Shown here: piece after piece, positions 2,864-61,760 of the stretch
Layout: every line of letters starts with the position of its first letter
Position numbering within the stretch: position 1 is the stretch's first letter
Assembly: GCA_964016885.1 (NCBI GenBank)
Contig: OZ024741.1
Span: 239,568,001 to 239,632,000, forward strand
From: Eledone cirrhosa
Lineage: Eukaryota
Reading direction: 5' to 3'
Length of the DNA stretch: 64,000 nucleotides
The notes under the pieces: generated by a model
Told to the model about the DNA's origin: nothing
What the model saw: only the letters and a program-made list of their open reading frames with translations
Databases searched by the model: none
Made by a program: the position numbers and the translations under genes

Positions 2864-2982
2864 TTAACTAGCAACAACATCTGGTGTTGAAGGTAACTGT
2901 CTCTCTGGAGGTTTCACATATCTGTCTTGGTAATGGTCTCTCTCACTGTTGCTTGACACATCAGGTGGGACACCATAGACTC
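2864..2982 (-). CDS. Pcdh: Gene A terminal coding exon (GVYGVPPD...RQLPSTPDVVAS*)
   Basis: TTTCAG| acceptor, phase-1 compatible, TAA at 2864-2866; conserved in all units. Confidence 0.88.
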
Positions 2983-3409
2983 CTGAAACAAGTAAATCAA
3001 CTCAACTTACTACACAGTTCATATAAATACCATATATTTATAGGCTGAAATTAGTAATCAATCTTTTGTCTACTATGTTCACTACATTAAGATATAAAAT
3101 CACAATTATTAAAGAAATGTTTGACCATCCTTAATGTCCTTAGATATAATAATTTCAGTGATCGAAAGATTAGAGGTTGACTGAGAATAAAAGTCAGTTA
3201 TGTAAATGATAATAGGCCCAGAGTGTAATATATATACTCTGGTAAAGTAGAAACTATTAAACATTACATCTGTGTAGAAACATATATTCACTTATAATAA
3301 AATTTATAAAGAAAGATTGATAGAAATGATCTTATATTGTTTCACAGTTGTTGAAATTAGAAATTATGAAAATTGAATTCAAATAAATAGATAAATAAAA
3401 TTGTTTTAC

Positions 3410-3560
3410 CTGACATTGCTGGTATTTCTTCATACTGTCTACTTGACCTTTCACTCCAACACTGGCCACTACTCTTATGACTGGTCAATGTATCAGTGGG
3501 ATAGTTAGCAGATGGTCTGTTGTCTCCATAAGATGTCACCTCTATAGGTTGACTGTATTT
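3410..3560 (-). CDS. Pcdh: Gene A cytoplasmic exon (151 nt; KYSQPIEVTS...RQYEEIPAMS)
   Basis: TGCAG| acceptor and |GTAAAA donor; in frame with the large exon; conserved in all 8 units while flanking introns diverge. Confidence 0.9.
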
Positions 3561-4280
3561 CTGCAGTAAAATATAGATAGGGTGTAAAGATATATGGTAC
3601 CATTATCTAAAAAGAAAAACCCATCAATTCTACAGATGCTTCTTATCTGACATCTTTCAATTCTACACTAGAAAATGTACCAGTATACATAAGACAAAAG
3701 CAAGTGTATTGCAGATAATTATTCTATAGATCACAATTAAAGAGAAGTGCACATACCATTTTTAGACCTTTCTTTATTGGTGACAATATCAATTTACATT
3801 GTGAGTGACTTAGTATGTTTGTAATGAAATGTTAGATTCATACCAGGCAGTAAATTCAACAGATTTGTCTTAGAAAGTAAACTGGATCATACAATGAAAG
3901 CTAGATCCAAGAAGTTAGATAAGATTTTATAAATAAATGTTAGGTTAGACTTGCTGAAAAGTTATGTAGACTGTGCAATGTATGAATAAATCTACAATTC
4001 TCCTGGTGATGGACATTTAAGTGAATCACTTCCAAACAAACATTTTAGAAATATGCAAACAGCAATAAATTTTTGATAATTTCATATTTCCAAAAGGAAC
4101 AGATTACATTTTTCATCAGAACATCATAATATCATGTTTTCAATCAAAGATATTCTATATAAAAACTAATGGGAAAATAAACATTACTCTTAAATTAAAA
4201 GATTAACTATATAAGAAATAATATCCCTACTTAATTAAATATCATTTATTAACAGATAGAAAATATATAATACAGTTTAC

Positions 4281-6659
4281 CTTTGTAGATTTTTGAAGAG
4301 ATCGATTCATTGTTGATATCTTCCAGTCTTCAGGATAGTAATGGCTTCTAGACTGACTATATCTGTCTGATATCTCTCCTCGATTACCTGACATCACAGA
4401 TACACTGTTGTTACCTTGATAGATCAACTGTCTCATCTCATTACGACATTGGTATGCCTGTTTCTCTTCTGTTGTTCTAGCAGAGTTATTTCTCACATTG
4501 TTACATCTCACAATACACAATGTTATAGAAACCACAATAGCTATAGATACTATCACAGCTGCTACTACAACGATAATCAACAATGTTGCATCTATTGTGT
4601 TATCAGTTGGTACATGGACAGCTGTGAACATTGGTGATGTCTTGTTACTAACAGTCAGTGTTAAAGAGACACTAGTTGTTGCTGACAGAACTGGAGTACC
4701 ACTGTCTTTCACAACAAACTCCAGTTGATATGATCCAGCATCATTTTGGTAAACTGTGCGAGAGTAAGATAAGACACCGGTGAATGAGTCCAGTTTAAAT
4801 AACTGTCTCTCATTACCTGAGAGGATTTCATACCTGAGAAAAGCATTCATGTGACTGTCTATATCAGAGGCTTTCAGAAGTGTGATGTCATTCTTACTTT
4901 GTGGATGATAGTGGACATCAAGAGTGAAAGGGTCAACACTAGGAAATGTAAAATATGGAACATTATCATTTTTATCTAATACTTCCACTTCAACATTCAC
5001 TGTGTTATTTAGAGATGGTGTTCCATTGTCTTTAACTAAAACCTCAAAGTCATAGAAATCTCTGTGTTCTCTGTCTAAAGATTGGTTTGTTGAAATAAAG
5101 CCAGAGTTGATAATCTGGAATGGTAGATGATATTGGTGTTTATTTCTCAGATAATAACTTAATTCACCTCCCTTACCAACATCTGGGTCTGTAGCATTGA
5201 TAAAACCAATAGGGAAATTAGCTTTGTCATTCTCATAGGTAAGGAACTTGAATGTATCTTTGGTAAAGTGTGGTTTTACATCATTCACATCTAACACTTG
5301 TATTGAGAGATCTTTATCAGTTTTCAGAGAAGGTAATCCTTTATCTTGACAGGAGACAGTAAAGTGATAATGTTCCTGTGTCTCTCTGTCTACTGCTTTC
5401 TTTAGAACTATTTTATATTCCTTAGATCCCATTGACTGTAGTTTGAATGTATCATGTTTAATATCACAGCTGACCTCTCCATTGTGTCCAACATCATTAT
5501 CAGTGACCATCACATAAGCAATGAAACTACCAACTTTGATATCTTCCAGAATGGTAGCTGTGTTGTGATTCTCTGTAGAAATATAGTTGACATCAATATT
5601 TGGAGGATTGTTGTGTTGGTTGATAATATTTACAATAACAGTTGCTATGGAGCTAAGAGGAGGACTGCCATTATCTCTGGCTTCTATGAATAATTTAAAA
5701 GATTCTTCCATATCAATTTCTGAAGACTTAGCTAAATATAACTTTCCTGTATTTTCATCTAAATCAAAGTATCTTTTCATTTTCTCTGCAGTTTTCCTTG
5801 CAAAATAGAAAGATATTTTACCATTCCTGCCAATATCTAAATCATTGGCAGATAATGTCACTACTGGAATATTCTTTTTATGGTCATGTTGTATAGAGAC
5901 ATTGTAGATACTTTTGGAAAATTGTGGTTTATTATCATTTTCATCTTTTACAGATATTTTAACATTTAAAATACTTTGTTTTGGTGGAGTTCCTCCATCT
6001 TTAGCAATGACTTCAATATTGTAACTGTCTTTCTTTTCTCGGTCTAATTTATCTTCTAAAATAATACCTATTGTTGATATTTCATCAGTTTCTTTGGAAA
6101 CTGATAAAGAAAAATTTCCATTATGCTTTTTTAATTCATATGTAATTAAGCTGTTCTCATACCCCACATCTTTGTCAATGGCGCTGGGAATGGGTCTCTT
6201 CAAACCCTTACCATCTCCATCCCTGAAATACACAGTGATTTCTTTCTCAGGAAACTCAGGTTGGTGGTCATTGATGTCTTCTATTATGACTTTAATTTTT
6301 AATATCTTCATAAATGTCTTGGATTTGTGAACAGCAACTTTAATTATTTCAAAACATTCTTTCTCATAACTACACACAGACTCAGCATCCAATGTCTGTA
6401 CAGTGTACAGTTTACCAGTTTTCGTCACATTAAACAATTGTTCTCCTTTTTGTTGTAGTTGACTAAATGTAATTAAATCCTTATTCTTTAAGGAGTTATC
6501 TGATGTCTGTAAGTCAGTAGCAATGTCCCCTACATAAGTATAGGGAATACTCTCTTCTTTAACATGGTATGTGATATGTTCACTTAAATAACAGTGGAAT
6601 AAAGTCAGTAAAATACACAGAAATAACATCTCTGCTCTTGATGTTAATACAGAGTCCAT
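4281..6659 (-). CDS. Pcdh: Protocadherin gene A, large coding exon (signal peptide, EC1-EC6, TM, proximal cytoplasmic tail)
   Basis: 805-aa ORF with six cadherin repeats (DINDHQPEF, LDRE, DENDNKP, DVNDVKP, DKNDN), the EC1 C-X5-C loop (CSYEKEC) and a TM helix LLIIVVVAAVIVSIAIVVSITLCIV. Similarity among paralogues stops exactly at KSTK|GTAAA (phase-0 donor, exon end 4281). Acceptor TTTCAG| upstream at 6685. Confidence 0.96.
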
Positions 6660-6840
6660 GGAAAATGATTGCTTAAATATTCAATCTGAAACAAACAAAA
6701 ATTATTTATCATACCTCAATTAACTGTTTGTAAAATAAATATATTCAAAAATTATTTATCATATTGATGAGCTATTGTCATATTTGCATAGAGAGAAATT
6801 GTATTATACCTCAAGTAACTGTTTGTAAAATAAATATATT

Positions 6841-6930
6841 TGTTTCTACGTTTGGCACAAGGCCAGCAATTACCCAGTGCATTACTGGTACTTTATTTTA
6901 TCGACCCCGTAAGGATGAAAGGCAAAGTTA
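6841..6930 (-). mobile_element. 5'-truncated Nin/Deu-domain SINE (duplicated copy at ~13999-14088)
   Basis: 3' half of the SINE flanked by TSD AAAATAAATATATT. Confidence 0.8.
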
Positions 6931-8951
6931 AAAATAAATATATTAATCAATGAAAGTGATTGTACAAAATTTCAATATTTGTATTCTTATTTATGGATAT
7001 AAACAAGTCACAATTTTGTGGTCTTTCTATCATGACATTCGCAGTACATATGGTGTGTAGTTTCAGATAAGAAGTCTCTTGTAAACATAACATGTGTAAT
7101 TCCTAAGGTAGATTACTTTGTGTCATAAATATAAGATAGCCCTATTATGAGACAGGTGATAGCTACATCACATCAGATTTAGATGAATTTCTGCAGATTG
7201 TTTAATTAAACTTCAGTGTAGCTTATTTATATTTTATATAGGAATTGAAAATTGGTTGTAATCCAGAAAATTGTTAAAACGTAAACAACTCAGAGGGAAA
7301 CAAGTAGGAAGTTATGAATTATCTCCCTTATATATACTACAAAGTACACCTAAATTATGTTTAACAGAACAAAAATCTACAGGAATATCTAAGTCACTAT
7401 CTTTCCATTGATATTGATGTATTACTATTAATAAAGTTAGATTTCTATTTTAAACTGAAAAAAAAATATTCTAAATTGTGAACATTTATATTCAATAAAA
7501 TTATAATCTTAACATCTTGGATATAATAATAATAATTAAATTATTGTGTACAGTGCTCAGGTGCACTACAACTCATCAAGGAATTCTTTAAAACAATATC
7601 AATTACCACTTGACTCCTCTATTTACTACATAAACAGCTTCCTTATGTGTCAAAAACCACTTTTATATAACAGAGGTTCATTAGATTAAAATCTAACAAT
7701 TAGCTGAAACATTTTAATTTTACATATAAAATCCAAATATATTTTTTGCATAAATATCAAACTAATTTTAAATCATACCACCTAGTGCTAGATATATTTA
7801 CTGAGAATAAATAACTAGATAATAAGCATTTGTTTTCTATAGTTGAAAATCGTTGTAAAAGGAGGGAAAAATCTAAAACAAATTCTAAAACAAATTTTTT
7901 TATGACTTATTCTGAAGTAGAAATAAAATATTTGGTACCATCTTTTTAAGTCATACTGTTATTTAGTCATGTAGATGAATATTTTTTACATAAAACCTAC
8001 CAGATTGATGTTATTTAACCCGATGTAAGATCCTATCTAGCAGACATTATCAAAAGCATTCCAGTCAAGACCACAACCTCTATTTTTCCAAATATAGTTC
8101 CTTTGTGTTACAAAAGGAAATATATGACATCTTACAGTAGTATCGAAATAGATAACAGGCCATAATTAATATATCTATATTCTTTACAAAGATTTAAGAC
8201 TACAGATTCCTCATTTTTTACTGAATTAATGAATATTAATTTTTGTAATGTAATTGGTAATTATTCAAATATACTTCTGACATGTTACCATAAAAGTATA
8301 AAGATACATATTTTGTTGAAACAAATCATACACAAATATATGTAAGGCAAATTTGTAAATTTTAACAAGTAAAAGTAATTTATATAAAAGAAACTATTAA
8401 CACTAATTTTCACATGATATTATAGCAATCAGTAGACATATACAAAAAATAATGATTTACACACGTTCATAGATTTTACATATACACAGTTATTTCAGAT
8501 ATGAAAATACTAATATTTTATAACAAATTTTCTTATTTATAAAGAATATTTAGGTAAAACCTATATTATTGAATGTATTTCAATGATATTCTAGTTCAAT
8601 ATTTAGTATGTAATAAGACCATACAATGTCAGACTGAATAATTTAGTAAAAATATATAATGATGAGCTATGTTAAAATATGATAAACAAGATAAATATAG
8701 TAAACAAATCAAAGATGACAGCAAATATTTTCAGAAGTATGTTATATTAAACTATAATCCAACATATATTCCTCTCTCTCACTGTTTCTTACAAAATAGT
8801 TGATAGCCATGTTGGTAAAGAAGACATTCAATGAGAACTAGCACAGATCTAATATGGCCACCATTACAATATATTTTGATGTTATAATATACTATGTATG
8901 AAGTGATTATTTTACATGACTTGATAAATAATAAGCAATGATAAAACTTAC

Positions 8952-9450
8952 ATTCATTGTGTAAAATCCTTTGTTATAAACTGTGAGTTGGTCCCAATGT
9001 TCTGTTAATGGTTGTCTGTGTCACTGCTGCTATGGTGTGACAATGGCTTCATGTTGATGGAATAGTGTTGGTAGTGAGTCAGTGGGAACCAGCAGTTCCT
9101 CTCAGTCTTCTGTGTATGTGTGATGTTTACTGAGTGTGAGTGTGAGTGTGTGTGTGAGAGAGAGAGGGGTGGGGGAGGGTGATGCTTACTTCAGCCTCAC
9201 TCAGACTAGATGTGTTTCCCCTCACAGAAAAGAGGGAGAGAGAGAGAAGACACAATATCAGCTCCACTAACAGTCAGCCAAATGTCTATATAATAATATG
9301 TCTGGTGTAGAGAGACTGACATAGAAATACTTAGAAGAGAGAGGTTATATTAACAAAATATGGCTGATGTTGTTAATGTGTAATATGTAATATAAATACA
9401 AAATTAATAATAATAGTTAGTGTGTGTCTGGCTTAATTATAAACTAACTT
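8952..9450 (-). promoter_or_regulatory. Promoter and non-coding first exon (~8952-9268) of gene A
   Basis: Same cassette; |GTAAGT donor at 8952 pairs with the acceptor at 6685. Confidence 0.7.
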
Positions 9451-9965: not shown

Positions 9966-10084
9966 TTAACTAGCAACAACATCTGGTGTTGAAGGTAACT
10001 GTCTCTCTGGAGGTTTCACATATCTGTCTTGGTAATGGTCTCTCTCATTGTTGCTTGACACATCAGGTGGGACACCATAGATAC
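9966..10084 (-). CDS. Pcdh: Gene B terminal coding exon
   Basis: TTTCAG| acceptor, 119 nt to TAA. Confidence 0.88.
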
Positions 10085-10281
10085 CTGAAAGAAATAATTC
10101 AATTCAACTTACCACATAGTTCACATAGACAATAGATATCTTCTGACATTAATAATCCATCTCTTGTCCAAAATGAAAATTATTAAAAAGGTTCTTTTTG
10201 ACCATCCCTAAAATTCTTCAAAATTATAAACATAAATTATTATAATGATAATAATAAACATGGAAAATGAAATGTTTTTAC

Positions 10282-10432
10282 CTGACATTGCCGGTATTTC
10301 TTCATACTGTCTACTTGACCTTTCACTCCAGCACTGTCCACTACTCTTACGACTAGTCAGTGTATCAGTGGGATAGTTAGACGATGGTCTGTTGTCTCCA
10401 TAAGATGTCACCTCTATAGGCTGACTGTATTT
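10282..10432 (-). CDS. Pcdh: Gene B cytoplasmic exon (151 nt)
   Basis: CAGCAG| acceptor, |GTAAAA donor, paralogous to 3410-3560. Confidence 0.9.
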
Positions 10433-17073: not shown

Positions 17074-17192
17074 TTAACTGGCAACAACATCTGGTGTTGA
17101 AGGTAACTGTCTCTCTGGAGGTTTCACATATCTGTCTTGGTAATGGTCTCTCTCATTGTTGCTTGACACATCAGGTGGGACACCATAGATAC
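17074..17192 (-). CDS. Pcdh: Gene C terminal coding exon
   Basis: TTTCAG| acceptor, 119 nt to TAA. Confidence 0.88.
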
Positions 17193-17399
17193 CTGAAAGA
17201 TATAATTCAATTCAACTTACCACATAGTTCACATAGACAATAGATATCTTCTGACATTAATAATCCATCTCTTATCCAGTCTGATATAAAATGACAATTA
17301 TTAAAAAGGTTCTTTTTGACCATCCCTAAAATTCTTCAAAATTATAAACATAAATTATTATAATGATAATAATAAACATGGAAAATGAAATGTTTTTAC

Positions 17400-17550
17400 C
17401 TGACATTGCCGGTATTTCTTCATACTGCCTACTTGACCTTTCACTCCAGCACTGTCCACTACTCTTACGACTAGTCAGTGTATCAGTGGGATAGTTAGAC
17501 GATGGTCTGTTGTCTCCATAAGATGTCACCTCTATAGGCTGACTGTATTT
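17400..17550 (-). CDS. Pcdh: Gene C cytoplasmic exon (151 nt)
   Basis: Canonical AG/GT boundaries; paralogous sequence. Confidence 0.9.
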
Positions 17551-24694: not shown

Positions 24695-24813
24695 TTAACT
24701 TACAACAACATCTGGTGTTGAAGGTAACTGTCTCTCTGGAGGTTTCACATATCTGTCTTGGTAATGGTCTCTCTCATTGTTGCTTGACACATCAGGTGGG
24801 ACACCATAGATTC
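24695..24813 (-). CDS. Pcdh: Gene D terminal coding exon (ends DVVVS*)
   Basis: TTTCAG| acceptor, 119 nt to TAA; separated from the previous exon by a TE-expanded 2.8-kb intron. Confidence 0.87.
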
Positions 24814-25214
24814 CTGAAACAAGTACATCAACTCAACTTACTACACATTTCATATAAATGCCATATATTTACTGACTGAAATTAGTAATCAATCTCTTGT
24901 CTACTATGTTCATGAGGTTAAGACATGAAATAACAATTATTAAAGAAATTATGTTTGACCATCTCTAATGTCCTTAGATATAATAATTTCAATGATCCAA
25001 TGATTAGAGGTTGACTGAGAATAAAAGTCTGTTCTGTTAATGATAATAGACCCAGGGTGTGATATATATATATATCCTTGTAAAGTAGAAACTATTAGAC
25101 ATTATATGAGTAGCAAGACACATTCACATATAATGAAATTTATAAAGAAAGATTGATATAAATAATATTAGATTGTTTCATAATTGTTGAAATTAGAAAT
25201 TATGAAAATGTAAT

Positions 25215-27217
25215 TCTACTCATAATATAATAAAGTGCGGGATTGTGTCCTAAATATATTTTTTTATCCCGTTAGTAAAATAAGTTGGATTAAAATAAGT
25301 TGGATTAAATATTAAATATTACATAATTTATATACTAAATTTTGTAGCTGTTGATTCATATTATCATCATCACCGTTTTACGTCCGTTCTTCCATGCTAG
25401 CATGGGTTAGACGGGTTGTCCTGTTGTGGGCAGTGTCTGGTCAGCTGACCATGCCTTGCTCATACAGGAACTGATTTGGCTTGATTTCTACAGCTGGATG
25501 CCCTTCCTAACACCAACCTCATTTACAGTGAGTGCTCGGTGCTTTTTTGCCGTGGCGCCTCCACGACCACTTTGCAGTGGGAGGAGATGGGGTCATATTG
25601 TCTATATGCTTCAGCTTCGGCTTGTACCTGTGGGAAGTCGGGTCTTCTGTATTACTGCGTGACGCCAGAGGTGCAATTGGGTAAGGTCGGCTTTTATCAC
25701 CTCATCCCAGGTCTTCTTCGGTCTCCCCACTCGGCGGCTTCCATCGACTTCTAGTGCTCTGCACCTTTTTATGCAGCTGTCATCCTTTATATTCATCACA
25801 TGTCCATACCAACACAACCTCCTCTCCTGCACACAGCATTTGATTCCTCTTATGCTTTGTCGTTCGCGTATATTACTATTACACATCCATCGGAGCATGC
25901 AAGCTTCATTTCTTTCTAATCTACACAAGTCTTCTACAGACAGCGCGCCCAGGTTTCACTACCATGTAACATTACTGTTCGTATACATGCATCATACAGT
26001 CTGCCTTTCATTTTGAGGGGAAAGCCTTTTGCAGCTAGCAGTGGCTCCCTGAACTTCTTCCATCCTATTCTTACCCTAGTTATTGTACTTTCCGAACACC
26101 CACCTCTGCTGCTAATTCGGTCACCTAGGTAGCAAAAGCTGTCTACTGTTTCTACAGAGTCCTCTCAGAGTTTGGTGGTGCTTGTTTGCTGTGGCCATTT
26201 GCTGCTTGTTGTCCCAGCGCAACTGTTACATGTGAAGCCTACATTCTTAGCTAAGCTTCCTGAGATCCCACTACATCTCTTGTGTACCCATTGTTTGCAT
26301 TTGGGGCAGAGGATGGAGTTCCTACCTACACCTTTCCTACATACTGAGCAAGGCCATTTCCCTGAGGGGATCTGGGTTCTGTTTTCTCGTCTACTTACAA
26401 GGACCTTAGTCTTTGTCAGGTTGACTTTGAGACCTTTTCTTTCTAGTCCCTGCTTCCATGTTTGGAATTTTTTCTCTAGTTCCACCATAGATTCAGCTAT
26501 AAGTGTGAGATCATCCGCATATAGGAGTTCCCATGAGCATCCGGTCTTAAACTCCTCCTGTACAGCCTGCAAACCTATAATGAACAAGAGAAGGCTAAGA
26601 ACAGAGCTCTGGTGGACACCGACCTGTATCTAAATTCCTCGCTATAGTCATTGCTAACCCTACCTTTGCTGACTGCTCCCCTATACATGGCTTGTACAGC
26701 TTTCACAAGCCATTCATCTACTCCTAGTTTTCTAAGAGCCCACCAGATTATAGCACGGGGGACTCTGTGAAAGGCTTTTTCCAGATCAACGAATGCAGGT
26801 AGATTAAACATAAATATTCTTATATATAATGATTGCTTATTTTAAGATTCACTTTAAAATTTTCAAATATCAATACTTCTGGTTATGATATAACGCACTA
26901 TATTATATCGCTTATATAAACGTTCATATATTTGCATCGTTATATAATGTTTATATATCTGTCGCTAATTTTCTCCTTTTTCGTTTTCATTACATTTCAC
27001 CGTAATGCAGTTTATATAAAATATATTTTTTAAATGTATCGTGGATCACTTTACTGATTGCAGAAGAGAGTAAGTGTCTCTTCAATTTCTGTGCATATTA
27101 TCAATTACGATTTTATTTGATGTATCATATCTAAATGCATGTATATTTGCATATAATATCAATATGCACACTATACATGCTAGCAGAAAACCAACCAAAG
27201 GGTGGTTTTTCTGCTAG
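25215..27217 (+). mobile_element. Putative non-autonomous Helitron-like element interrupted by the RTE fragment
   Basis: Absent from the paralogous intron of gene A. Starts TCTACTCATAATATAATAAAG and ends in a hairpin (CTAGCAGAAAACC...GGTTTTTCTGCTAG) with terminal CTAG followed by T; no TSD. Confidence 0.55.
25363..26802 (-). mobile_element. 5'-truncated, decayed RTE LINE in intron 3 of gene D
   Basis: AFVDLEKAF, LLYADD, WPCSVCRKGVGRNSILCPKCKQWVHKRC, RRLCWYGHV, GRPKKTW, (GAT)n tail; same family as 40440-43942. Confidence 0.92.
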
Positions 27218-27235
27218 TGAATTTAATAACAGACA

Positions 27236-27584
27236 TCATCATCATTCATCATCATCATTTCATTTTACGTCTGCTTTTCCCTGCTTGCAAGGGTGGGACG
27301 GGAACTGATTCTGGCTTGATTTCTACAGCTGGATGCCCTTCCTAACACCAACCTCATTTACAGCGAGTGCTGGGTGCTTTTTTGCCGTGGCACCTCCACG
27401 ACCACTTTGCAGTGGAATGATAGAGACCCCAGTCCCTATCATCTCATTTCTACAGCTGAGTAAACTGGAGCAATGTGAAATAAAGTGTCTTGCTCAAGGA
27501 AACAACACATCACCCGGTCTGAGAATTGAACTCACAACCTTTCGATTGCAAGGCCAATGCTCTAACCACTAAGCCATGTGCCTC
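27236..27584 (-). mobile_element. tRNA-derived SINE with CORE-like centre and RTE-derived 3' tail
   Basis: A box TGGCTTAGTGG, B box GAGTTCAATTC, CCTTGAGCAAGACACTT centre; tail nearly identical to the LINE 3' UTR at ~25370-25580; TSD CAGACA (27230-27235 and 27585-27590). Confidence 0.85.
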
Positions 27585-27612
27585 CAGACAAAGATAAATA
27601 AAATTGCTTTAC

Positions 27613-27763
27613 CTGACATTGCTGGTATTTCTTCATACTGTCTACTTGACCTTTCACTCCAGCACTGTCCACTACTCTTACGACTGGTCAATGTATCAGT
27701 GGGATAGTTAGAAGATGGTCTGTTGTCTCCATAAGATGTTACCTCTATAGGTTGACTGTATTT
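27613..27763 (-). CDS. Pcdh: Gene D cytoplasmic exon (151 nt)
   Basis: Canonical AG/GT boundaries; paralogous sequence. Confidence 0.9.
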
Positions 27764-34591: not shown

Positions 34592-34698
34592 TTAACTGAC
34601 AACAACATCTGGTGTTGAAGGTAACTGTCTCTCTGGAGGTTTCACATATCTGTCTCTCTCATTGTTGCTTGATACATCAGGTGGGACACCATAGATAC
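34592..34698 (-). CDS. Pcdh: Gene E terminal coding exon (107 nt; in-frame 12-nt deletion of DHYQ)
   Basis: Paralogous exon lacking TGGTAATGGTCT (plus strand); frame and stop retained. Confidence 0.87.
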
Positions 34699-35056
34699 CT
34701 GAAACAAGTACATCAACTCAACATACCATACAGTTCACATAGACAGACTTTATAGACATTATCAATATTTTGTCCACTACATACACTAAACTAAGATAGA
34801 AAGTAATAATCATAACAGAATTAATAACATGCCATACAATTGTAACTTTACAATCTTAAACATTAATAAATAACTAAAACAATATATTTAGTAATTTAAG
34901 ATCAATATTACATTCATTGAACATTAAGTTTTTTAATTGACAACATGAGTAAAAGTAATAAATTTGGGAAGTCATTAAAACACAATGCTTTGTTAAGGAC
35001 TTACTCCAATATGTAACAGAGAAAGATGATAAACATTAATGAAAATATTCTTTTAC

Positions 35057-35207
35057 CTGACATTGCTGGTATTTCTTCATACTGTCTACTTGACCTCTCA
35101 CTCCAGCACTGTCCACTACTCTTACGACTGGTCAATGTATCAGTGGGATAGTTAGAAGATGGTCTGTTGTCTCCATAAGATGTCACCTCTATAGGTTGAC
35201 TGTATTT
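35057..35207 (-). CDS. Pcdh: Gene E cytoplasmic exon (151 nt)
   Basis: CATCAG| acceptor, |GTAAAA donor. Confidence 0.9.
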
Positions 35208-40439: not shown

Positions 40440-43400
40440 ATGGATTACAGAGTTGGGAAATATTACCACTCACGACAAAGATGAATTCACCTCCCGTTTC
40501 AGGATGAACATGCAGACACTCATCATATCAGATATGGAAACCAAGACCAACATAATTCCATCTCCCACACCTCTCCCTTTGTCCCCATCCCATCCCTTCC
40601 TCGACCCCAGCAAAATCCAAAATTTCAGAATTGGTACCATGAATGTAGGCACATTGAAAGGTCGCTCAAACAAGGTTGGAGAGATGCTTGAACATAACGA
40701 AGTCGATGTTTGTTGTGTTTAAGAGACCAGGTGGAGGGGTGGGTCTGCTAGATTCATTGTGGGCAAGAAACAATGCTATAAGCTTTTCTGGATGGGTTCT
40801 GATAGCAGGCTTGGTGATGTTGGAATTATGTTAGCAGAAAAATGGGTAGACAAGGTAATTGCCGTAGATAGAGTGAATGACAGGATCATTAAAATAAGAT
40901 TAGTACTAAATAGGACAACTGTATCAATTATTTCTGCTTATGAAACCCAATCCAGATTACCAGATGTTACTAAAGACAGGTTCTATGAGTCTCTAATGCT
41001 CACTACCTCCCAGATACCCAACAGTGACTATATAATTATTGCTAGCAACCTTAATGGTCATGTTGGACAACATTGTGATGGCTATGATTGTGTCCATGGA
41101 GGTTATGGGTTTGGTACTAGAAATAAGGAAGTCTTCAGGATCCTGGAATTCTGTAATGCAAATGACCTGACTATCTGCAATACAAACTTCAAAAAAAACG
41201 TGATAGTCATTTGATCCTGTATAGATCAGAGGAGCACATCAACCAGATAGGACTTTATCCTTACTAGGAAACGAGACAAAGTGTCTGTTTTGAACACTAA
41301 GTCCCTCCCTCGTGAAGAATTCGCCTCCCAACATAACTTAATAGTTAAGTGACCTCATAGTCAGGGCCAGATATAATTGCCGACAGAGGAATACCTTAAG
41401 GAGAAGATTATGGAAGTTGAAGAACCCCGCAACCAGTAACAAATTTAAAGGCATATTACTTGATGCTTTTGATAGTAAGGAAGAGCAATTAGAGACATAC
41501 AATATAGAGGAACAGTGGGAATTCCTGAAAATTAACCTGTTGAAGGCGACTGATAAAATCTATGGCTGGAGCAGACCGTTAGGCAGGAGGAGAGGGACAT
41601 GGTGGTGGAACAGTAAGGTGGAGGAGTCCTTCAAGGGCAAAAAGCAGGTGTGGAAAAAATGGGAGGATGGGGGTAGTAGAGAACTCTATCGAGTAGCTAA
41701 GAGAGAAGCGAGACAACAAATATACCTTGCAAAGAGGGAAGCAGAGGATAGTAAGTTCAAGCATATTCTACGACGGGCGGACCAAAGACGTGAAGTATTC
41801 AGGATTGCGAGGCAATGTGTCAAGGAGAATTGTGATATTGTCGGGGGGAGACGTGTCCGTAATGACTGATAGTGATAAGAAGGTAGCTTGGAAATGTCAC
41901 TATGAGAGACTACTGAATGTGGAGAATGAATGGAATAAAGATAGTCTGCCCCACATCGATCCAATAGAAGGACCAGCTGTGCAAGTTAATGGTAGTGTAG
42001 TAAGTAAGGCAATCAAAAATATGAAGACAGGCAAGGCAGCTGGGCCTTCAGGGATAGTTGCTGAAATGTTGAAGGTATCTGGAATGGTGGGACATACTAT
42101 GGTCACCCGGATAGTAAACCAAGTAATACAGAATGGGGTCATACCAAATGACTGGCATAACAGCATCATCATCAACTGTTACAATGGCAAAGGAGATGCC
42201 CTGGATAGAGGAAACTATAGGGGCATTAAATTAGTTGACCAAGTCATGAAAGTGTTATTACTCAACTGATGAGAGACCAAATTGATCTAGATGAAATGCA
42301 GTTTGGGTTTGTGCAAGGTAAAAGTACCACAGTTGCTCTTTTCCTTGTACAGCAATTACAGGAGAAGTACCTAGCTAACAGTAAACCCCTCTACTTAGCT
42401 TTTTTTGACCTGGAGAAGGCCTTTGACAGAGTCCCACACACCTTAATCTGGTGGGCTCTTAGCAAACTAGGAGTGGAAGAATGGCTTGTGAGAGCTATAC
42501 AAGCCATGTATAGAGGAACAGTCAGCCAGGTTAGAATTAACAATGAATATAGTGATTGAATTTAGCGTAATAATAGGGGTTCACCAAGGCCCCGTCCTTA
42601 TTCCCCTCCTGTTTATTATTGTCCTACAGGCTATAACAGAAGAGTTTAAGACTGGCTGCCCATGGGAACTTCTATATGCAGATGATATAACTCTCATAGC
42701 TGAATCCATGGCTGAACTAGAGAGGAAGTTCCAAATATGGAAGCATGGCCTTGAATCAAAAGGCCTTAGTGTCAACTTGTCTAAGACTAAGGTTCTAGTA
42801 TGTAGGAAGGAGAATAGGGCACAGGTACTCTCTGGGAAATGACAATGCTCAGTGTGTATGAAAGGAGTAGGTAGAAACTCCATTCTATGTCCCAAATGCA
42901 AACTATGGGTACATAAAAGATGTGGGATCACAGGTAAGCTATCTAAGAATGTAGATTTTATGTGGCCGATGCTCAGGTGCAGTAAGTAGCAAGGACCCAC
43001 TGGATGCTATCTCCTTCAACTGCCCAGATTGTTCTATAGAAATAGTAGACACTGTTACCTGGGTGACCAAATCAGCAGTGGAGGAAGGTGCTCTGAAAGT
43101 GTAGTAGCAAGAGTTAGAGCGGGATGGAAAAAGTTCAGAGAGCTAATACCGTTGTTGGCCACAAGGGGTTTTTCTCTAAAAATGAAAGGCAGATTGTATG
43201 ATGCATGTATATGAACGGCAATATTACATGTTAGTGAGACTTGGGCATTGTGCTGAAGACCTGCGTAGATTAGAAAGAAATGAAGCTTACATGCTTCGAT
43301 GGATGTGTAATAGTAATGTGCACGAAAGGTGAAGCATAAATGAATTAAGAGAGAAACTAAGCATAAGAGGTATCAAATGCTGTGTTCTGGAGAGGAGATT

Positions 43401-45534: not shown

Positions 45535-45653
45535 TTAACTGACAACAACATCTGGTGTTGAAGGTAACTGTCTCTCTGGAGGTTTCACATATCTGTCTTG
45601 GTAGTGGTCTCTCTCATTGTTGCTTGACACATCAGGTGGGACACCATAGATTC
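45535..45653 (-). CDS. Pcdh: Gene F terminal coding exon
   Basis: TTTCAG| acceptor, 119 nt to TAA. Confidence 0.88.
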
Positions 45654-46539
45654 CTGAAACAAGTACCAAGTACATCAATTCAACTTACCACAGAGTTCAT
45701 AAAAACGATATTTACTATGATTAGATCATCAATCTATTAACTACTACACCCACCAACCTGAAATATAAATCAATAATCATTAAAGACATTGTTTTACCAT
45801 TCCTCAGAAATCATAATCAATTCAGTGATGCAATGATTTTATCCTAGATTAGATTGGTTAAATGTCAGTTCAATGAGTGATATGACTCTCTGTGCCATAT
45901 TATCATTGTCAGTTGTACATTAATTTTTTAATGTTGGCATAAATTAGATAAGACTAATATATGGTTGTATACTACAACCAAATGACTTTCCAGAAACCAA
46001 CCAAACCAGCTTTTTAAGGAACAGAGTTTCACATGTCTAATCTTTGAGTGTGTGGATATTTATGTATGCAGAATGTAAACATTCCCACCTCTGATAGTGA
46101 ATGCAAAGATAAGACAGCTGTCTAACAAATACATAGGCATAAATATGCACATATATACATCATAATAATCATTTTCATTTCATATCTGCTGTTCCAAGTT
46201 GGCATGATTTGGGAGCAGTTGTTACACACAAAGTGCATAGTTAATTGGACCTACTACCTTCCTAGATGGTTCAGTGTAACATATTTGGCTCAATTCATTC
46301 CATTGGAGCACAAACACACAAACAATGGAATTCCTTATAGATTTTATCAACCACATTCACTAATAGGGTATAGGATGGACAAAGGCTATAGTAAGAGACA
46401 CTTGCCAGAGACTAAATAGAACTCAAGTCCACATGCTTGTGAAGAATAAAGTATCAGCTAACATATAAAGTTGAATAATAAAGACATTAATAGAAATAAT
46501 GAAATTAATAACAATCATGAATGAATTAAATGTTTTTAC

Positions 46540-46690
46540 CTGACATTGCTGGTATTTCTTCATACTGTCTACTTGACCTTTCACTCCAACACTGTCCACT
46601 GCTCTTACGACTGGTCAATGTATCAGTGGGATAGTTAGAAGATGGTCTGTTGTCTCCATAAGATGTCACCTCTATTGGTTGACTGTATTT
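46540..46690 (-). CDS. Pcdh: Gene F cytoplasmic exon (151 nt)
   Basis: TAGCAG| acceptor, |GTAAAA donor. Confidence 0.9.
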
Positions 46691-52891: not shown

Positions 52892-53010
52892 TTAACTGGC
52901 AACAACATCTGGTGTTGAAGGTAACTGTCTCTCTGGAGGTTTCACATATCTGTCTTGGTAATGGTCTCTCTCATTGTTGCTTGACACATCAGGTGGGACA
53001 CCATAGATTC
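52892..53010 (-). CDS. Pcdh: Gene G terminal coding exon
   Basis: TTTCAG| acceptor, 119 nt to TAA. Confidence 0.88.
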
Positions 53011-53354
53011 CTGAAACAAGTACATCAACACAACTTACCATTTAGTTCACATAGATAGACAATGATTATTTTATTGATAATAATCATCAATTGTTTATCC
53101 ACAACATCCACTGAACTAAGAGAGAAAATAACAATCATAATAGAATTCATACAAGATCATATATTTACATCTTTACAATCTTAATAAACCACTAATTAGT
53201 TAAATAAAATAATATCTTTAGTAATTTAAAATCAATATTAAATTACTTGAACTTTTTGTCTTGAATTGACAACAAACATAGTGCTTTGTTTAGGACTTAC
53301 TCTGATATGTAACACTGAGAAAGACCATAAATATTTATGAAGATATTGTTTTAC

Positions 53355-53502
53355 CTGACATTGCTGGTATTTCTTCATACTGTCTACTTGACCTTTCACT
53401 CCAACACTGTCCACTCTTATGACTGGTCAATGTATCAGTGGGATAGTTAGAAGATGGTCTGTCATCTCCATAAGATGTCACCTCTATTGGTTGACTGTAT
53501 TT
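53355..53502 (-). CDS. Pcdh: Gene G cytoplasmic exon (148 nt; one Ser codon deleted)
   Basis: Canonical boundaries; 3-nt in-frame deletion relative to paralogues. Confidence 0.89.
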
Positions 53503-61120: not shown

Positions 61121-61239
61121 TTAACTGGCAACAACATCTGGTGTTGAAGGTAACTGTCTCTCTGGAGGTTTCACATATCTGTCTTGGTAATGGTCTCTCT
61201 CATTGTTGCTTGACACATCAGGTGGGACACCATAGATTC
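61121..61239 (-). CDS. Pcdh: Gene H terminal coding exon
   Basis: TTTCAG| acceptor, 119 nt to TAA. Confidence 0.88.
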
Positions 61240-61609
61240 CTGAAACAAGTACATCAACACAACATATTTAGTTCACATAGACAGAAAATAGGTATTTACT
61301 GACATTAGTCATCAATATTTTGTCAATTACATCCAATTAACTAAGATAGAAAATGACAATCATAATAGAATTAATATATCTTTACAATCTTAATAAACAA
61401 CTGATAAGTTAAATAAAACAATATACTTGGTAATTTAAATAATTTAGATATTTTAGATCAATATTAAATTCTTTGTACTTACAGTGTTTGAATTGCCAAA
61501 ATGGGTAAAACTAATATATTTCAGAAGTCATTAAAACACTTTGTTTAGGACTTACTCTGATATGTAACAAAGAGAAAGATGACAAAAATTAATGAAGATA
61601 TTGTTTTAC

Positions 61610-61760
61610 CTGACATTGCTGGTATTTCTTCATACTGTCTACTTGACCTTTCACTCCAGCACTGGCCACTGCTCTTATGACTGGTCAATGTATCAGTGGG
61701 ATAGTTAGAAGATGGTCTGTTGTCCCCATAAGATGTCACCTCTATAGGTTGGCTATATTT
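61610..61760 (-). CDS. Pcdh: Gene H cytoplasmic exon (151 nt)
   Basis: CAGCAG| acceptor, |GTAAAA donor. Confidence 0.9.

Follow-up and report, generated by a model that had tools for sequence, protein, structure and literature searches.

A family-wide YEEIP motif in the cytoplasmic tails of octopod clustered protocadherins

A tandem array of spliced protocadherin genes

The window, that is, the whole stretch of 64,000 nucleotides analysed here from Eledone cirrhosa (contig OZ024741.1, positions 239,568,001 to 239,632,000), contains eight protocadherin reading frames, arranged head to tail and all on the minus strand, the last of which is cut by the window end. Each unit consists of a probable non-coding first exon, a large exon that runs through the transmembrane helix and the first 76 residues of the cytoplasmic tail, and two small tail exons, here called A and B. 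Pfam finds six Cadherin stretches in the window protein and no cytoplasmic tail family at E values up to 1. The genes have six cadherin repeats, one transmembrane helix, and no catenin-binding tail domain, and in 8/8 units they are tandem, same-strand, whole multi-exon genes with tail exons of their own. This is the organization of the coleoid clustered protocadherins, with which they share head-to-tail, multi-exon, fully duplicated genes homogenised by conversion, the six cadherin repeats, and the single helix (Albertin 2022, PMC9068888; Styfhals 2019, PMC6339937). The best-matching proteins are Octopus and Argonauta models named 'protocadherin beta-15-like', and this is therefore an octopod cluster. 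The window genes are ordinary spliced members of an octopod clustered protocadherin subfamily, and their exons and motif types, like the genes themselves, are of kinds already known.

In copy 1, the large exon (4281..6685, minus strand) encodes the signal peptide, the six cadherin repeats, the helix, and the first 76 tail residues. Exon A (3410..3560, minus) is 151 nt long, or 50 codons plus one base, with AG/GT ends, entered in phase 0 and left in phase 1; it carries YSQP, a conserved Trp, and YEEIP. The coding part of exon B (2864..2982, minus; spliced joint 2981-3409) ends with TAA. The introns are 720 nt (before exon A) and 427 nt (between exons A and B). The tail exons of the other copies, likewise on the minus strand, lie at 9966..10432 (copy 2; A 10432-10282, B 10084-9966), 17074..17550 (copy 3; A 17550-17400, B 17192-17074), 24695..27763 (copy 4; A 27763-27613, B 24813-24695, with a 2.8 kb intron), 34592..35207 (copy 5; A 35207-35057, B 34698-34592, with four codons deleted between the two YxxP), 45535..46690 (copy 6; A 46690-46540, B 45653-45535), 52892..53502 (copy 7; A 53502-53355, one codon shorter, B 53010-52892), and 61121..61760 (copy 8; A 61760-61610, B 61239-61121, the large exon of which runs off the window). 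GT-AG ends and matching phases are found for exons A and B in 8/8 units.

The probable non-coding first exon of copy 1 (8952..9396, minus, its 5′ end given approximately) has its donor after 8952. A homologous block with a GT donor is present in 8/8 units, and RNA contigs splice the block to the large exon. The homologues end at 8952, 16063, 23787, 33858, 44710, 51955, and 60376 on the minus strand, with a further one at 2420-1991. Neither a fourth coding exon nor an element of the 3′ UTR, both of which were considered, accounts for this last block: it carries a GT donor, and splicing connects it with the beginning of a large exon, which makes it the first exon of the next gene. First exons begin a few hundred bases past the stop of the preceding gene, and their last 155 bases are 97 % alike across the eight units. 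In contigs from other species these bases are as conserved as the coding exons. The exon includes an upstream frame of only 15 codons, and an ATG lies just ahead of the donor in 7/8. Elsewhere in the window, broken reverse-transcriptase-like frames of LINE type were seen by eye in the open reading frame list at 26133-26633, within intron 2 (2.8 kb) of copy 4, and at 40723-42269. A very abundant short repeat, probably a SINE, lies at about 6836-6931, with similar sequence at about 40-180, and reaches a depth of tens to hundreds of thousands in 4/4 runs.

Contigs from four of the 24 listed runs were placed on the window at 85 % likeness. A contig from run X24, the kind of which is listed as '?' and which shares its organism code with the DNA of X21-X23, connects 2981 directly with 3409; the skipped stretch has CT..AC ends and coincides to the base with the second intron as predicted. 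Contigs from X24, X5, and X1 join 3563 to 4281, which is the first intron plus three bases, and depth is zero in wholly intronic bins in all four runs. The exact 3560 join is absent among the joints listed; the +3 join fits the tandem acceptor of four of the eight copies, copy 1 itself not being among these. Such tandem NAGNAG acceptors, at 61760, 46690, 17550, and 10432, add or omit one Gln, and in 37 NCBI models exon A starts with this residue in 26 and without it in 11. Placement at 85 % likeness means that splicing is shown at the level of the subfamily and not specifically for copy 1. At this level the junctions that the earlier note had proposed as a check show the tail exons spliced as predicted, the second intron exactly and the first with three additional bases. 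The same note had called these exons hidden, which is true of the open reading frame track only. They are already within annotated proteins of three Octopus species and Argonauta, with exon A segments 90-96 % identical in 37 octopod proteins from NCBI/UniRef; as the NCBI models of related species include them, the exons are therefore not hidden.

Tail motifs in the window copies and in distant octopod paralogues

Four tail motifs are each present in 8/8 copies, as had been noticed from the sequence: YEEI, within YEEIP at the end of exon A (3420..3434); YGVP at the start of exon B (2966..2977); YVKP in exon B (2909..2920); and RQLPSTP (2882..2902), which is class I SH3-ligand-like and lies 35 residues past the YEEI tyrosine, all on the minus strand. 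Both of the YxxP sites described earlier are present, and a third, YSQP (3546..3557, minus), which opens exon A, had been overlooked. When the 165-aa tail was shuffled 200,000 times, YEEI and RxLPxxP each arose in 0.15 % of the shuffles, and at least two YxxP in 18 %.

The invariance of these motifs in the eight copies, offered by the earlier note as evidence, is true and uninformative. All 19 motif codons are identical at the DNA level in the eight copies, silent sites included, and the invariance therefore reflects recent homogenisation. Just 11 of the 89 tail-exon columns are variable, so variation would spare every motif residue by chance with a probability of 0.06, and the 12 key residues with one of 0.18. 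Invariance was accordingly rejected as a sign of selection. Between copies, 24 % of residues differ in EC2 and 21 % in EC3, 7.5 % in EC1, and about 2-3 % from EC4 to the stop; fourfold sites in this last region differ by 0-15 %, and the intron ends are merely 58-75 % alike. Divergence confined to EC2-EC3 resembles the specificity-determining repeats of vertebrate clustered protocadherins. Such homogenisation by conversion has been described for coleoid protocadherins (Albertin 2022, PMC9068888). Lineages also differ in the form that predominates at the start of exon B (P0001-P0037), which is YGGA in Octopus, YGSP in Argonauta, and YGVP in the window; this points to concerted evolution. For YEEI, little is gained from close orthologous subfamilies, because exon A is 90-96 % identical throughout.

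Distant paralogues were therefore the informative comparison. The tail sample, octopods only, comprised the best 120 of 2436 matches to a profile including the tail, plus earlier matches, and leans towards YEEI because the tail was part of the profile that chose it. From 127 proteins, three that were too short, three without a clear helix, and one with a repetitive 451-residue tail were left out, and clustering at 60 % identity sorted the remaining 120 tails into 44 clusters. No other 4-mer is as common as YEEI, which occurs in 20 of the 44 tail clusters against a shuffled mean of 0.04 (shuffle expectations, here and below, ignore common descent). The relaxed pattern Y[DE][DET][ILV], picked after the data had been seen, is found in 28/44 clusters and missing from 16/44. 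In an alignment of 37 cluster representatives with tails of at least 120 residues and a mean identity of 25 %, Y-E-E-[IL]-P accounts for four of the eight best-conserved columns: Y is kept in 29 (78 %), the first E in 30 (81 %), the second E in 27 (73 %), I/L/V in 34, and P in 28 (76 %), against a median column of 30 %. Upstream of the motif, Trp is kept in 59 %, Glu in 48 %, and Gly in 40 %; the YSQP site has its Y in 54 % and its P in 32 % of these tails. The variants of YEEI are conservative (YEEL, YEEV, YDEI, YETL). In a quick tree that used EC4-EC6 and the helix but not the tails, YEEI is spread over most of the deep branches within the octopods, among which the tree does not fix the root. 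Between 113 and 153 residues separate the motif from the membrane, and in some models the protein stops 2-6 residues beyond it.

YEEIP is thus conserved above its flanks in distant octopod relatives, and is probably a core held by purifying selection across the octopod radiation. The region of the motif has a polar composition and no Pfam match, and a PDB sequence search with exon A gave 0 matches at E 10. In the ESM Atlas, the best score for helix plus tail was 0.83, under the lead level of 0.9, and a long-tailed paralogue had no usable match. A full-length profile search of representatives was swamped by giant cadherins, and the few single-gene matches looked up were octopod, plus one bivalve. 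A metagenome scan yielded 71 loci with identities of 25-32 %. The tail profile matched none of them, its best E being 0.14, and no YEEI-type motif was seen in the tails displayed; most of these loci show the large exon only, so this is not evidence of absence of the motif.

Two further conserved tail blocks, EMRQLIYQ-like and YPE..W, lie in the large exon at about 4281-4510 in copy 1. A short-tailed clade without YEEI keeps a FYPQYES..W block (P0044, P0045, P0047, P0051, P0052, P0056, P0060, P0068, P0072, P0082, P0088, P0097, P0117), and its members could be non-signalling or differently signalling isoforms.

The proline-rich and YxxP sites have a narrower distribution. RxLPxxP is the class I SH3 ligand consensus, and it is found in 8/8 copies and in 36/36 close relatives with exon B; among these 36, YVKP is kept in 35 and YGxP in 17, the first exon B YxxP having been lost in 19. 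Across the family, co-conservation with YEEI fails: downstream [RK]xLPxxP is found in just 2/20 YEEI clusters and downstream YxxP in 3/20. Overall, [RK]xLPxxP is enriched (11/44 clusters against 0.20 shuffled), in three separate clades and positions, namely the window subclade, a clade with R[RK]LPPVP in mid-tail, and a long-tailed clade ending in YxKPLPxxP. The last also carries YDVP/YDIP near the membrane and YEEL/YETL, and YDxP is present in 10/44 clusters against 0.74 shuffled. Members of the long-tailed clade with a conserved C-terminal block are P0105, P0108, P0112, P0114-P0116, P0118, P0122, P0126, P0258, and P0271. As a guess from alignment by eye, YVKP..LPSTP of the window could be the YxKPLPxxP ending with four residues inserted. 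With an SH2-type YEEI, [RK]xLPxxP enriched in three clades, and YDxP in one, octopod tails repeatedly carry SH2- and SH3-type sites. The WIRS pattern (Phi-x-[TS]-F) has no place in the window tail, which lacks Phe, and occurs in 3/44 clusters against 4.7 shuffled; the RVxF pattern is absent or at chance level in octopod tails.

The four-part module of YEEI, RxLPxxP, and two YxxP proposed in the earlier note is therefore confined to a subclade, and within it the YGxP site is kept in fewer than half of the close relatives. Of the conservation expected in distant paralogues, YEEI is kept far above the rest of the tail, and RxLPxxP and YxxP are not family-wide. The SH3 and YxxP sites are best read as accessories of a subclade, and what endures is a single family-wide motif, YEEIP, not the module.

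Candidate readers of YEEIP

The pYEEI peptide used in crystallography originates from viral middle-T. QYEEIP is the peptide crystallised with the Src and Lck SH2 domains (PDB 1SPS, 1CWE), and it fits the library consensus for Src-family SH2 ligands, pYE[ENY][IML] (PMC2271153 Table 1), so that the identification of YEEI as such a ligand sequence agrees with the published consensus. The window tail shares all six residues with this peptide; here they sit in a native receptor tail, as a candidate ligand only. The interpretation preferred here, held with about even confidence, is that selection has kept YEEIP as a phosphotyrosine/SH2 docking site, the most likely partner being a Src-family kinase. 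Pro+4 and the upstream Trp (59 %) are conserved, though the Src consensus does not require either. No relevant octopus phosphoproteome was found in the literature search.

In such a mechanism, clustering of protocadherins at a matched cell contact would allow a tyrosine kinase to phosphorylate the YEEIP tyrosine. The phosphorylated motif would dock a Src-family SH2 domain, holding the kinase open at the contact, and the docked kinase would signal to actin or adhesion. RQLPSTP, which in the window subclade follows 35 residues later, would offer a further contact through SH3, so that Src would dock at two points as on p130Cas; the tyrosines of exon B would serve as additional substrates close by, though not as required ones.

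A phosphotyrosine site with another reader, such as a Syk/Shark-type kinase, Nck/Dock, or a Cbl/Hakai-type ubiquitin ligase driving endocytosis, is a less probable reading. The two-tyrosine ITAM pattern (Yxx[IL] x6-12 Yxx[IL]) is found in 0/120 tails. The Cbl pattern ([ND]xY[ST]xxP) occurs in 1/120, elsewhere than at YEEIP, and an ITIM-like residue at -2 in 6/120. Nevertheless, the consensus of the Syk C-terminal SH2 domain, pY[QTE][QTE]L (PMC2271153), accommodates the YETL and YEEL variants, and the 76 % conservation of Pro+4 would suit Cbl-family SH2 domains, which have a +4 pocket (PMC3507883). Nck1 prefers pYDE[PDV] (PMC2271153), whereas the +1 residue of YEEIP is E in 30/37.

It is unlikely that the motif instead serves, unphosphorylated, as a YxxPhi sorting signal for clathrin adaptors (AP-2/AP-3 mu chains), setting surface levels as in vertebrate clustered protocadherins, the tails of which are reported to contain trafficking segments (PMC3216661, PMC4660814). 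The pattern fits, with Y and the bulky +3 residue both conserved; however, E+1, E+2, and P+4 are as conserved as Y, and YxxPhi as such is not enriched (34/44 clusters against 30.0 shuffled). A YxxPhi signal does not need conserved E+1, E+2, or P+4.

A longer element, from the Trp about eight residues upstream to Pro+4, might have YEEIP as its core and bind a phosphate-independent partner, the likeness to a Src ligand being coincidental. The upstream Trp (59 %), Glu (48 %), and Gly (40 %) would belong to it, and other conserved tail blocks (EMRQLIYQ-like; YPE..W) are likewise without a known ligand. The spacing between Trp and Tyr is variable, though, several YEEI tails have no Trp, and SH3-type and YDxP sites are enriched within the same family, which makes this quite improbable. 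Conservation at the DNA level, by gene conversion or through a splice enhancer, is very improbable: the codons are identical in 8/8 copies, EC4 to the tail is homogenised to about 2-3 % amino-acid difference, and the motif is at an exon end with its two Glu codons reading GAAGAA, a sequence that can act as a splice enhancer, 16 bases ahead of the donor, yet YEEIP persists in tails merely 25 % alike, the flanks of which have evidently not been levelled by conversion, and Y, I/L, and P are kept too, with conservative swaps.

Comparison with known signalling tails

Cas and FAK have their SH3 site ahead of the SH2 site, whereas in the window tail it comes after. p130Cas combines a Src-SH3 site, RPLPSPP, with YxxP tyrosines recruiting Crk and Nck (PMC2956669). 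An RxLPxxP-type SH3 site and YxxP tyrosines are common to Cas and the window tail, but Cas has 15 YxxP and the window tail three, one labile and none YDxP. An array of many conserved YxxP, mostly YDxP, as in a Cas-type Crk/Nck substrate, is not found in the window tail, and at least two YxxP arise in 18 % of shuffles. For the Abl-Crk/Nck arm of the signalling proposed earlier there is little support in this subclade. The long-tailed octopod clade is a better look-alike of p130Cas than the subclade of the window.

Like the window genes, vertebrate Pcdh-alpha/CNR and Pcdh-gamma have a shared tail behind diverse ectodomains. In the vertebrate alpha and gamma clusters, however, variable exons are spliced to common constant exons, whereas each window gene has its own tail exons; constant exons shared between genes were not found, and the window genes are not clustered protocadherins of this type. 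The earlier note had seen no evident similarity to vertebrate constant regions, and none was found in Pfam or with the octopod tail profile over 147 representatives. In these, vertebrate constant regions were represented by the gamma type, and P0130, by its motifs presumably a vertebrate protein with a gamma-type tail, was not matched at E up to 10. The analogy that had been drawn with Fyn is a lead only. A Fyn link of alpha-protocadherins is stated in PMC2644493 and PMC6339937, but the available text of a 2020 review of protocadherin signalling (PMC7339444) mentions neither Fyn nor Src and lists Pyk2, FAK, and the WAVE complex.

YEEIP in octopod protocadherin tails has apparently gone unremarked in the literature searched. 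In the available text of PMC9068888 and PMC6339937 no SH2 or SH3 motif is named, and Table S2 of Styfhals 2019 (PMC6339937), as far as available, gives EC1, EC5, EC6, TM, and PP1 motifs only. Full-text searches for YEEI in protocadherins, or for SH2 with cephalopod protocadherin, gave no match; Albertin 2015, Wang and Ragsdale 2017, and most of the Albertin 2022 supplement lie outside this search and may note the motif. No cephalopod title is among the YEEIP literature matches listed, and a search for squid protocadherin cytoplasmic domain with Src returned unrelated matches only.

The intracellular signalling of the expanded cephalopod protocadherins, including their intracellular partners, has been described as unexplored (PMC6339937), and a five-residue motif surviving in a tail that is 25 % conserved makes this open question directly testable. 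If Src-family kinases read YEEIP, two independent protocadherin expansions would have reached related kinase signalling via unrelated tails. A broader proposal, doubtful though possible from the motif distribution, is that octopods, independently of vertebrates, built a direct phosphotyrosine output. Its basis would be a nearly optimal Src-SH2 site, YEEIP, inherited from an ancestor and common to much of the expanded family, with SH3 handles ([RK]xLPxxP) and YDxP sites of Crk/Nck type gained later in separate subclades. If this is true, the strength and the adaptors with which ectodomain matching is linked to Src-family kinases would differ from one subfamily to the next, giving a receptor code with graded signalling tails that would converge on the kinase pathway linked to vertebrate alpha-protocadherins.
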